A stretch of DNA of 64,000 bases. Source: Gammaproteobacteria bacterium (GTDB lineage: Bacteria; Pseudomonadota; Gammaproteobacteria; JABCZS01). Location: contig JAJFKJ010000013.1 in NCBI GenBank assembly GCA_021773275.1, positions 2,092 to 66,091 on the forward strand, read 5' to 3'. Positions 45,321 to 47,719 of the stretch are shown in pieces. How positions within the stretch are numbered: position 1 is the first letter of the stretch; each line of letters opens with the position of its first letter. A model generated the notes under the pieces. That model searched no databases. It was not told the origin of the DNA and saw only the letters and a list, made by a program, of their open reading frames with translations. A program made the position numbers and the translations under genes.

Positions 45321-46580
45321 ATGGGTAAAGCCGCAGACAGAAAAAAACATAGAAAAGAGGAGCTAGAACACGCTACAGCGAATGCTGAAACCAGCTATGC
45401 ACAACAGCTAGTTGATTTAACCTGTTCAGTCGGGCGTTTTGCCTGGGAACATAAAGGTACTTTGTTTTTTATTAGCCTGGCTATTGCTGGAGCCGCTGCC
45501 ACACAAATGCAGGTGAACAATAATCAAAATTTCGCAATAACCCCCGGTGGCACTAGCAACTTACAACCCACTGCCGATCAGCCCGTGAATGTTTATGCAA
45601 TGAAAGATACAGCCACATCAGAATCTTCCCCTTATATATGCAATGACTTTACTCTATTAGCTAATACTAGCGCCCCTAAAAAGGCACGTCGTTACGCACT
45701 CGCCGAGTCACATCTACACCGAGCAAAAACTGCTGCATGTGTTGACAGTATTTTTGCAACAAGCAAAAGACCGCACCGTCTTTTCATAGAGGGTGTCGCT
45801 GCAAACGAGGAAGTCCCCTGTAATGAATTTGGCTACTCTGCCGCACCTGGGCGCAAATGCATCGGCTGGGAAAGCAAAGAAAGCATGCAAAACTTGGAAG
45901 CTGATGCATTTATCCTGGACAGCAATGCATTCGTTGATGAACTGCAAACGCGATTTAATAGCAAAGCAAATATTCCCGACAAAGCCTTCGATAGCTTCGT
46001 AATAAGTTCAGTCAAAAATCAATATGAAGCTTCTGTAACAGCTGATGAAAAAAAGTTTGGATTCAGCCGAACTAAACTCCCATCGCGATCGACACAAGCT
46101 GCCGCTGGATTTCATCTAAGAACCACCCGGCTTAAAACCTGTGATAAATTTTTAGAACAGCGTCAACAAGGTTATACGTGGAAGCATATTTTTAATAGAT
46201 ATCATAAGGAGCGCCAGCAACCCACAACAGTTGGACAATATGGCAACTACGTAAGCACCCAGGATATGAATAGCGATAAGATGGTTTCAGCTATGCTGGG
46301 CCGGGCTAAAAGCATGAGCCAAACCATCAACAGCTATGCAGGAGAGCCGGGCACTGATGTTGCAGCTGCAGGTGCGGCACACTTTCTACCAGCAAGATTG
46401 CTTAAATATTCCGCAGGGAAAAGCGCAGCTACAGACGAAGCCGTCACCTATCTTCTGAATGAGTTTGGAAAAGGACCTCATGGCAACAGCTTTGCGCTAT
46501 TAGCACTTGATGATATTCTTCCAGAAAATGTTGTGAGAGACAGAAAAGGAAGCTCCGCTAAGCCGAGAAAAAACACTTAG
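45321..46580 (+). CDS. Hypothetical membrane-anchored protein with Cys-rich extracytoplasmic domain (paralog 1 of a tandem pair)
   Basis: ATG at 45321 is preceded by GGAG (45311-45314). Charged N-tail, one TM helix LFFISLAIAGAAATQM, four conserved Cys, C-terminal AGAAHFL...LDDILPE...PRKNT. It is ~30-35% identical to the downstream ORF at both ends. Confidence 0.6.
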   Translation: MGKAADRKKHRKEELEHATANAETSYAQQLVDLTCSVGRFAWEHKGTLFFISLAIAGAAATQMQVNNNQNFAITPGGTSNLQPTADQPVNVYAMKDTATSESSPYICNDFTLLANTSAPKKARRYALAESHLHRAKTAACVDSIFATSKRPHRLFIEGVAANEEVPCNEFGYSAAPGRKCIGWESKESMQNLEADAFILDSNAFVDELQTRFNSKANIPDKAFDSFVISSVKNQYEASVTADEKKFGFSRTKLPSRSTQAAAGFHLRTTRLKTCDKFLEQRQQGYTWKHIFNRYHKERQQPTTVGQYGNYVSTQDMNSDKMVSAMLGRAKSMSQTINSYAGEPGTDVAAAGAAHFLPARLLKYSAGKSAATDEAVTYLLNEFGKGPHGNSFALLALDDILPENVVRDRKGSSAKPRKNT

Positions 46581-46603
46581 CTTTATCGAGGAGATAATTA
46601 CAT

Positions 46604-47719
46604 ATGGACAAGACAAAAAAAGAGGAACAAGCCCCTGCTCCAGCAGCTGAAGATAGCTATACGCAGCAACTAGTTGATTCAGCATATGCCATCGGACGCT
46701 TCACCTGGGAGCACAAAGGCGCTTTGTTTTTTATTTTCTTGGTTGGCGCTGGAGGTATTGCTAAGCAGATGCAGATAAACAGACAGCAAGGAGCAACGGC
46801 TACTACCCTAGGTAACCCCATTTGCCCGGGCTTTACGATGATCAAAGGCCAGCATGGTGCAACCAGGGTGGCAGTGGCCGAAGATCACAGCCGACCTTCA
46901 CTTGCTCAGAACTGCATCCGTCAGCTCAACTCTAGAAAAGTGTTGCTTGAAATGGTTCCCTCAGGGGAAACCGCTCCCTGCACCTATCAAAATCTTAATG
47001 TTCATAGCGATGCTGTGTGCATAGGATGGGATGAGATAGAGACTATTAATGACGTTTTTACGAATATAGAATTACCTCAGTTCCGCCAAGACTTCCTCGA
47101 CTATGTACATGAACGATCCGGATACTTAATGTATGATGATGCTACTCTAGATGCAAAATTTCATCGCTTCCTAAAGAACGAAATTGAAGAGCCACTAACA
47201 GAGCTCGCAGAGAAGCACGGTTTTATAAGCCCACAAAAAAAGAAGTTTTCTCCCGAAGAAAAACTATTCAACCAATATTATATAAGAAAACAAGTTTCTG
47301 ATGAGATCATAAAGCTAAGAAAATCTGGAAAATCGTGGAAAGTTATTTTTACACAATATAAAGAAAATGATGCACTAGAGAAATCTTTGCAAAAAGGCAC
47401 AGATATGCGCAAATATACGAAAGAGCAAGTGGAAGAGTTTCAAAGGCGAACAGAGTTCATGGTTAAGACGCTCAGAGAGCACGTGAAACAGGAAGAAGAT
47501 GTGACTATAAGTGCAGGAGCTGCTCATTTTTTAAAACTGGGAGCGTTTAAAGGTGGCTTAGGCATTTCAAGCCCTCTGGACTCTAGCATTGATTACCTTT
47601 ACAGGGAACTAAACAAAGGGCGTGACAGAAACCCTTATGCCATTTTAGTGATGGATGATATACTTTCTGACAGCGAAAAACAATCAGGTGAAAAGTTTAG
47701 GCCGAGAAAAAACGTTTAG
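46604..47719 (+). CDS. Hypothetical membrane-anchored protein with Cys-rich extracytoplasmic domain (paralog 2)
   Basis: RBS GAGGAG. Conserved with paralog 1: [51 protein letters not shown] Cys positions, C-terminal AGAAHFL...MDDIL...RPRKNV. Confidence 0.6.

Follow-up and report, generated by a model that had tools for sequence, protein, structure and literature searches.

What do two neighboring genes encode that lie between core genes of a gammaproteobacterial genome and match no curated family, and how did they come to be there? The genes, here called pA and pB, are carried by contig JAJFKJ010000013.1, within a stretch of 64,000 nucleotides (the window), where the gene order is carB, carA, higA, higB, pA, pB, dnaJ, dnaK (Table 1). 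A preliminary description, made from the sequence of the window, saw in them strongly diverged tandem paralogs (about 30% identity) of a membrane-anchored, cysteine-containing protein without a recognizable family, located beside a toxin–antitoxin module in the gap between the chaperone and car genes. The pairing and the location are both confirmed. Over their full length the two proteins are 29% identical (BLASTP, E 7e-47), a similarity far above chance, and they are true paralogs. Features that align in both are a charged N-terminal tail, a hydrophobic stretch, four cysteines, the AGAAHFL and [LM]DDIL motifs and a [KR]PRKN[TV] end. We propose that pA and pB belong to an undescribed, distant branch of the TIKI hydrolase superfamily with a membrane-tethered, exported catalytic domain, a reading that we hold to be probable, if not strongly so. 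The superfamily would thereby gain a rare, cysteine-bearing and N-terminally anchored branch, and for two "orphan" genes, five candidate catalytic residues and a predicted topology can now be put to the test.

Neither protein finds a match in Pfam, NCBIfam, PADLOC or the sequences of the PDB. An exhaustive hmmsearch with a profile of the two sequences, run over 1.84 billion cluster representatives, recovers 65 distant relatives of about 280–420 amino acids (E 4.5e-23 to 6e-4), with matches that span the first cysteine through the AGxxH region. Together with pA and pB these form a family set of 67 sequences, and the hidden Markov model (HMM) built from it finds pA at E 1.3e-73. The existence of these relatives implies that the family is real, though it is rare. 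A word-indexed homolog search returns only the query itself when started from a single sequence and, with a swamped output, only P0001 and P0066 when started from the 67-sequence profile. Scanning 185,579 species-representative genomes and the JGI metagenome contigs for sequence patterns turns up no relatives except one fragment. Within the family, pA and pB are nearest neighbors by a wide margin, and in a 90% identity clustering of about 15 billion proteins both are singletons.

The alignment of the 67 members is anchored by a small number of nearly invariant residues. In pB numbering, H95, C126, C139 and G141 are kept in all members, E116 in 66, C104 in 65 and C74 in 64. Position 93 is Glu in 61 members and Asp in three more, G305 is present in 63 and H308 in 61, and R282 is Arg in 58, followed by Asn in most. 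Further near-invariant positions are F77, three residues past C74, the (L)[GA]-E93-x-H95 motif and C139-x-G141-W. Conservation extends to an RKxGxSYxxIF motif and to an NPYAIL strand near the C-terminus.

The TIKI superfamily comprises Tiki1/2, TraB/PrgY/GumN, ChaN, EreA/B, Bcr135/136, RRSP/PMT C1-C2 and HopBA1 (Sanchez-Pulido & Ponting 2013, via PMC6254334). The "2His/2Glu" site of RRSP consists of E3900/H3902, E3930 and H4030, to which the basic R4001 is added; the 2His/2Glu set is common to erythromycin esterases such as Bcr135, of which 3B55 is named as a TIKI-superfamily structure, and ChaN, PMT and HopBA1 are structural relatives (PMC6254334). The pA/pB family has the same order E-x-H ... 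E ... R ... GxxH, with the second Glu about 23 residues past the E-x-H and a His about 26 residues past the Arg. All elements at the level of motifs are present: a Glu-x-His, for which the superfamily also admits GxxH, at the end of a predicted core strand; a second Glu on the next such strand, which the superfamily places about 25–30 residues downstream; a basic residue before the second His; and a GxxH after a late strand. Judged by these residues, the series matches the 2His/2Glu plus Arg active site of TIKI enzymes.

Profile and structure comparisons point in the same direction. PF04187 (ChaN) is matched by eight and PF01963 (TraB/PrgY/GumN) by four of the 67 members, with a best E of 6.3e-6, and these are the only Pfam families matched by more than one member. 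The matches are colinear with the motif order. The start of the ChaN profile is matched by the family consensus (61–125 on profile positions 3–63) and by P0035 (117–158 on 6–51 of 213), its positions 175–204 are matched by residues 268–296 of P0051, and positions 214–245 of the 263 in the TraB profile by residues 317–349 of P0020. With hhalign, the RN...AGxxH block of the family pairs with RN...VGALH of the E. coli TraB-family protein YbaP, and R282 falls on YbaP R227 (E 0.0069 against the single YbaP sequence, 0.0024 against a YbaP alignment, and 2.4e-4 at a probability of 43% with the C-terminal core only). The AlphaFold2 (AF2) model of pB made with the family alignment has a predicted local distance difference test (pLDDT) score of 86.2 and a predicted template modeling (pTM) score of 0.74; from the two paralogs alone the pLDDT is 38 and the model unusable. 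Its predicted strands 77–82, 88–93, 112–120, 138–143, 300–305 and 345–350 make up a β-α-β core, the motif residues lie at or within core strands, and a long helical excursion covers 145–293. Strand-end motifs in a core of this type are also described for the TIKI superfamily, where a helical segment separates the second Glu from the Arg/His part. The top two Foldseek matches in the PDB are 3B55 and 2RAD (Bcr135, Ere family), with 2QGM at rank 30, all of them weak (E 0.16–0.27, template modeling score about 0.22). Since two members of the Pfam clan, hhalign, Foldseek and the order and spacing of the motifs agree, they point to one and the same superfamily.

Several results weigh against this assignment. 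pA and pB themselves match no Pfam or NCBIfam model, and the matches of their relatives are all below the gathering thresholds: the family consensus, P0035 and P0051 score 16.6, 17.1 and 16.3 bits where PF04187 demands 27.7, and P0020 scores 10 bits where PF01963 demands 26.8. The alignment with YbaP spans only about 36 columns, and the Asn of the RN motif is Thr in pB and Ala in pA. PDB sequence searches with core profiles return nothing real, and the profile of the N-terminal core returns nothing. A narrow YbaP HMM run against the family likewise gives nothing significant. Two groups of PDB matches were discarded as artefacts, those to designed helical repeats, caused by the low-complexity helical insert, and those to designed WD40 repeats, summed from repeat matches to an "RNxxLLxTL" string. 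The low scores, the negative PDB searches, and a helical insert and four cysteines without documented counterpart in known TIKI families would all fit a different fold, in which the E-x-H, E, R and H residues together with the cysteines might, for example, bind zinc or another metal and the similarity is coincidental. We find this improbable, given that the four lines of evidence are independent and their motifs colinear, and that the predicted β-α-β core sets the motifs at strand ends, as in TIKI enzymes (PMC6254334).

A TIKI assignment thus remains the preferred reading, at the level of the superfamily. Because no curated threshold is reached, we call the family an undescribed branch of a known superfamily. 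The view that the proteins have no recognizable family does not hold in the face of 65 relatives with a sub-threshold TIKI/TraB/ChaN/EreA catalytic signature; what stands of it is that the pair matches no curated family. Assignment to a well-known periplasmic family, which was to decide against the preliminary description, is thereby reached in part: a known, largely extracytoplasmic group comes into view, at superfamily level only and below curated thresholds.

Compared with the superfamily at large, whose curated family models all fail to detect pA and pB, the new branch adds the four cysteines, a helical insert of about 150 residues that contains RKxGxSYxxIF, the C-terminal NPYAIL strand and an N-terminal anchor. 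Its RN...(V/A)GxxH(L/F) block aligns with TraB/PrgY/GumN proteins such as YbaP, whereas the first motif of YbaP is GSIH, without the Glu present in the pA/pB family. ChaN (PDB 2G5G), a heme-binding lipoprotein of Campylobacter, shares the G-E-x-H N-terminal region and is exported, as is predicted for pA and pB. It is also the Pfam family most often matched, by the consensus as well as by relatives; the divergent member P0066 immediately precedes a TonB-dependent receptor and TonB, and several iron-related genes are close by on the contig of P0009. The layout at P0066 recalls the chaN-chaR arrangement of Campylobacter. A non-catalytic, ChaN-type accessory protein of periplasmic heme or iron uptake is nevertheless a reading to which we attach very little weight. 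The family, pA and pB included, keeps the 2His/2Glu plus Arg set near-invariant, as expected of an active enzyme; no TonB or transport genes were found near pA/pB, P0003 or the other loci examined; and the ChaN matches are weak (16–17 bits for the relatives, cut-off 27.7) and confined to motifs shared by the superfamily.

We next consider where an enzyme of this kind would act. In both proteins a GRF[TA]WEHKG motif precedes a hydrophobic stretch of 14–17 residues, which in pA reads TLFFISLAIAGAAA. The Kyte-Doolittle maximum over 15 residues is 2.2 in pB and 1.9 in pA, and the AF2 model places helices over the N-terminal part of pB at 18–36 and 38–63. Taken alone, the stretch is a marginal transmembrane (TM) call. 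It is short, with a maximum over 19 residues of about 1.5, and the N-terminal tail of pB is net acidic; both points speak against a membrane anchor, so that the topology leans mainly on the relatives. N-termini are complete in 64 members, among which hydropathy identifies 27 signal-peptide-like and 24 anchor-like hydrophobic segments (51/64); the 13 relatives without a clear segment again count against the assignment. Three anchor-type relatives (P0011, P0014 and P0039) have the same "(W)E[HN]K + TM with GG" pattern as pA and pB, and their basic N-terminal tails fit an N-in/C-out orientation. With a Sec signal peptide or an N-terminal anchor in most relatives, the catalytic domain of pA and pB is probably exported and tethered to the inner membrane. 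The anchor proposed in the preliminary description is therefore backed by a segment in the pair and in most relatives, while the TM call in itself is marginal, and the extracytoplasmic domain that it proposed is probable. Its four positionally conserved cysteines are borne out as well: C74/C104/C126/C139 of pB align with C107/C140/C167/C180 of pA and are kept in 64–67 of the 67 members. Several relatives carry an extra N-terminal Cys-x(n)-Cys pair. The four cysteines probably form two disulfide bonds that stabilize the domain.

The layout that we envisage for pA and pB is a cytoplasmic N-terminal tail of 40–45 residues, a single N-in/C-out signal anchor and an exported α/β catalytic domain with a large helical insert, perhaps held by two disulfides. 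The candidate catalytic set is complete in both (E93-x-H95, E116, R282 and H308 in pB; E129/H131, E157, R328 and H354 in pA). As all five residues are retained, pA and pB are both probably active hydrolases. On the periplasmic side of the inner membrane, the enzymes would cut a peptide or ester bond of an extracytoplasmic substrate: a water molecule activated by the Glu and His residues would attack the bond and the Arg would help to bind the substrate, the mechanism put forward for Ere enzymes and RRSP (PMC6254334). By analogy, hydrolysis of a peptide or ester bond is the most likely activity.

The nearest functional analogues would be TIKI proteins that are tethered to a membrane and trim peptides or proteins outside the cell, such as Tiki acting on Wnt and PrgY on a pheromone. 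Vertebrate Tiki1/2, which are Wnt-inactivating proteases, have a membrane-tethered TIKI domain on the extracytoplasmic side, as predicted here, but they are eukaryotic and of type I topology, with a C-terminal anchor. Tiki is a metalloprotease that trims the N-terminus of a secreted protein and is a useful mechanistic analogue. PrgY of Enterococcus also resides in the membrane and has an extracytoplasmic TIKI domain, and its presumed target is a peptide pheromone; its TM helices are C-terminal, in contrast to the N-terminal anchor of pA and pB. In this comparison the pair appears to work most like an extracytoplasmic membrane-tethered TIKI hydrolase, with the superfamily motifs present and no family-level threshold reached.

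Bacterial TIKI members are mostly uncharacterized, yet they include toxins and effectors. RavE (Lpg0195), a Dot/Icm effector of Legionella with catalytic E19/H21 (PMC13378530), RRSP of the Vibrio MARTX toxin, with E3900/H3902, and HopBA1 of Pseudomonas syringae, all from host-associated bacteria, have the TIKI fold, and PMT is a further example (PMC6254334). Like RavE, RRSP and HopBA1, which cleave host proteins or are believed to, pA and pB could be host-targeting effectors, delivered by Dot/Icm-type or other secretion to cleave a host protein inside a eukaryotic cell. The window hints at host association, with a 1521-amino-acid ankyrin-repeat protein and a eukaryotic-type Ser/Thr kinase, the contig of P0009 also encodes an ankyrin protein, and pA and pB, specific to their lineage and quick to diverge, form part of an islet. 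We nonetheless see little likelihood in it. RavE, RRSP and HopBA1 do their work inside the host cytosol and have neither Sec signals nor conserved cysteines, whereas pA, pB and their relatives look Sec-exported: about 80% of the relatives with complete N-termini have a Sec-type signal peptide or anchor, and the four, sometimes six, conserved cysteines suggest an oxidizing compartment. The basic end of the pair, which could have passed for a secretion signal, consists of nothing but dnaJ antisense (see below) and is absent from the relatives, and no secretion-system genes are present in the 64-kb window. Finally, the pattern scan did not find the family in the 185,579 species-representative genomes, so it is not among the well-studied Legionella or Coxiella effectors.

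The preliminary description had also drawn attention to near-identical ribosome-binding site (RBS) contexts and to a conserved C-terminal tail. The RBS regions are alike (cGGAGAttagcATG and GAGGAGAtaattacatATG for pA and pB, respectively), but the likeness goes hardly beyond the Shine-Dalgarno consensus; the ATG of pA lies seven nucleotides 3' of GGAG and that of pB nine nucleotides 3' of GAGGAG. In the tail, AGAAHFL and [LM]DDIL are indeed common to the pair, whereas the PRKN end has another origin. The 3' end of pB overlaps dnaJ convergently by 23 nucleotides, and its last codons, RPRKNV-stop, are the antisense of the DnaJ codons ...KRFFSA-stop. A 29-nucleotide relic of the same dnaJ end lies at the end of pA (26/29 identical, 0 matches expected by chance). 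The reverse complement of this relic reads LDKAKCFFSA-stop, and it supplies KPRKNT-stop of pA together with 8–9 nucleotides past the stop codon. Both genes thus draw their last six codons and their stop codon from dnaJ antisense, and the relatives have no [KR]PRKN[TV] tail. Because both open reading frames (ORFs) end in a copy of this sequence, the shared tail is a copied piece of the dnaJ antisense strand and not a family motif. What looks like a conserved protein motif can thus result merely from the overlap of a gene's end with a housekeeping gene. In pA and pB we have a concrete annotation and a case of gene-end overprinting, not a new kind of system.

The history of the locus can be followed by comparison with a close relative on a metagenomic contig (L007), whose DnaJ belongs to the same 90% identity cluster and whose dnaJ ends in the same sequence as that of the window. 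The relative has the order hrcA-grpE-dnaK-dnaJ-carA-carB-greA, with a dnaJ-carA gap of 136 bp that holds no family member. Since dnaJ adjoins carA there, the segment 44325–47696 of the window, with higA, higB, pA and pB, is lineage-specific, and higBA, pA and pB are accessory genes that fill a 3.4-kb insertion. The composition of pA and pB and their GC content at third codon positions (GC3) are unremarkable compared with the neighboring core genes. Comparison of synonymous (dS) and nonsynonymous (dN) divergence between the two copies, which had been suggested as a check, shows synonymous sites to be saturated (NG86 dS 3.3, dN 0.71; third-position identity 38%). The N-terminal regions are 63% identical in amino acids with many synonymous differences, which indicates purifying selection rather than recent conversion. 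The dnaJ relic, on the other hand, is only about 10% diverged, so the junction looks younger than the split of pA and pB. This suggests that pA was already present when pB was inserted, with duplication of the target, between it and dnaJ, a course of events that we favor over a recent duplication in situ.

A tandem duplication in place would have copied the RBS, the gene and the last ~30 nucleotides of dnaJ, followed by fast divergence of the gene while selection or conversion preserved the relic. That pA and pB are mutual nearest neighbors in the set of about 15 billion proteins (E 7e-47, where no other protein does better than 1e-23) is what such an event would leave, as are the similar RBS regions, the entry of both ORFs into the repeat in the same frame and the lack of a third copy of the repeat upstream of pA. 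We regard it as possible but rather unlikely. A dS of about 3.3 is hard to combine with a 29-nucleotide repeat that differs at only three positions, and selection on the protein cannot explain why the nucleotides past the pA stop codon are kept. The close relative, moreover, has neither pA nor pB, and two other insertions in the same window, higBA and an ankyrin-protein gene, are also flanked by duplicated target sequence, which indicates a recurrent process of insertion with duplication.

The insertion of pB next to pA by target duplication would thus have parallels close by. The copies of a 30-nucleotide direct repeat on either side of higBA are 25/30 identical, where the best chance repeat in simulations reaches at most 22/30, which suggests that higBA was inserted with duplication of its target. 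The gene for the ankyrin protein (56174–60739, 1521 amino acids) is inserted between recN and rimK, which are adjacent in L007, and has recN 3'-end sequence on both sides, in a direct repeat of at least 107 nucleotides and 91% identity (56040–56156 and 61173–61289). Beyond the distal copy follow the ancestral intergenic region and rimK, just as they do in L007. Three islets in one 64-kb window, each flanked by a duplicated target, are a clue to how accessory genes enter the gaps between core genes in this lineage. Combining all of this, one may speculate, though we would call it doubtful, that pA and pB represent a family of disulfide-stabilized, membrane-tethered or secreted TIKI-type proteases, not recognized before and confined to uncultured host-associated Gammaproteobacteria. 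Such proteases would act on extracellular proteins or peptides of hosts or competitors and diversify by serial cassette-like insertion beside core genes, with 30–110 nucleotides of target duplicated each time and, once, the dnaJ antisense overprinted as C-terminus.

Table 1. Features of the pA/pB locus and its surroundings (positions in the window; active-site assignments are predictions)
Feature	Position	Strand	Basis or remark
pA, upstream paralog (predicted cytoplasmic tail, anchor, TIKI-like domain)	45321..46580	+	419 aa; ORF list
pA putative hydrophobic anchor, about residues 46-62, after GRFAWEHKG juxtamembrane motif	45456..45506	+	hydropathy
pA first Glu-x-His motif, E129-S-H131	45705..45713	+	aligned with pB E93/H95
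pA E157, equivalent of pB E116	45789-45791	+	alignment
pA R328, equivalent of pB R282	46302-46304	+	alignment
pA residues 350-354, equivalent of pB AGAAH	46368-46382	+	alignment
Relic copy of dnaJ 3'-end antisense at the end of pA	46559..46587	+	26/29 identical to 47698-47726
pB, downstream paralog	46604..47719	+	371 aa; ORF list
pB putative hydrophobic anchor, about residues 39-53	46718..46762	+	hydropathy
pB first Glu-x-His motif, E93-D-H95, end of strand 88-93	46880..46888	+	putative counterpart of RRSP E3900-x-H3902
pB E116, putative second catalytic Glu, strand 112-120	46949..46951	+	putative counterpart of RRSP E3930
pB R282, basic residue of the RN motif	47447..47449	+	hhalign with YbaP R227; putative counterpart of RRSP R4001
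pB A304-G-A-A-H308, GxxH motif after strand 300-305	47513..47527	+	aligned with YbaP VGALH and the C-terminal ends of the ChaN/TraB profiles
True dnaJ 3' end in antisense (its final 9 codons plus two bases of the stop), from which RPRKNV-stop of pB is read	47698..47726	+	
dnaJ, core gene, right border of the insertion	47697..48836	-	ORF list, gene calls, gene order of relative
carA, core gene, left border of the insertion	43164..44324	-	ORF list, gene order of relative
Direct-repeat copy 1 flanking higBA (ancestral carA-upstream sequence)	44362..44391	+	conserved in L007 intergenic region
higA, antitoxin gene (HTH_3)	44532..44846	-	PF01381 E 4.6e-8, 33.4 bits (cut-off 23)
higB, toxin gene, divergent from pA, outside the pA/pB unit	44846..45124	-	PF05015 E 1.2e-23, 83.8 bits (cut-off 27)
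Copy 2 of the higBA-flanking direct repeat, 79 nt upstream of pA	45213..45242	+	25/30 identical to copy 1

The boundaries of pA and pB in Table 1 are identical to those in public gene calls on the same contig. The start of pA is taken as the ATG after GGAG; a longer reading of 431 amino acids from 45285 is not used by these calls. The neighboring module has the organization of a type II HigBA toxin–antitoxin system, with higB followed by higA and the two ORFs sharing one base at 44846. It has a promoter-like TTGACG-17-TATAAT, close to the sigma-70 consensus, at 45173–45145 on the minus strand; nothing comparable was found for pA on the plus strand. A GC-rich palindrome around 45150–45175 (gcgcgttgcgcaacacgcg) overlaps this promoter and is probably the HigA operator. 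Just downstream of higA is an imperfect 30-nucleotide inverted repeat (44388–44417 and 44506–44535, 77% complementary, spacer of 88 nucleotides). We rejected its reading as an integron attC site because its ends mismatch the R'/R'' core consensus. A functional link between pA/pB and higBA was also set aside; all that speaks for it is adjacency, plus one relative, P0003, beside a HEPN-type gene.

That relative and the divergent P0066 likewise occupy gaps in conserved gene orders. P0003 (5712–6974 of locus L005) lies between pdxA and rsmA, beside the HEPN-type (NTase_sub_bind) gene at 7186–7503; a 29-nucleotide direct repeat around this insertion, at 72% identity, is too weak to count. P0066 (7402–8625 of L002) lies between pmbA and the TonB-dependent receptor/TonB pair (8945–11424). 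The contig of P0009 (L013) encodes an ankyrin-repeat protein and many ORFs without a Pfam match (1728–3443 and neighbors), and its iron-related genes are those for hemerythrin, VIT1, Nramp and an iron permease.

Elsewhere in the window, the eukaryotic-type protein kinase domain protein (752 amino acids, 609–2870, minus strand) matches Pkinase at E 6.4e-15, and together with the ankyrin protein it suggests a host-associated lifestyle. The ankyrin-protein gene has an internal tandem repeat of 66 nucleotides (59474–59605, 82% identical), and an IS200-like Y1 transposase ORF is present at 30726–31298 (PF01797, E 1.5e-7).

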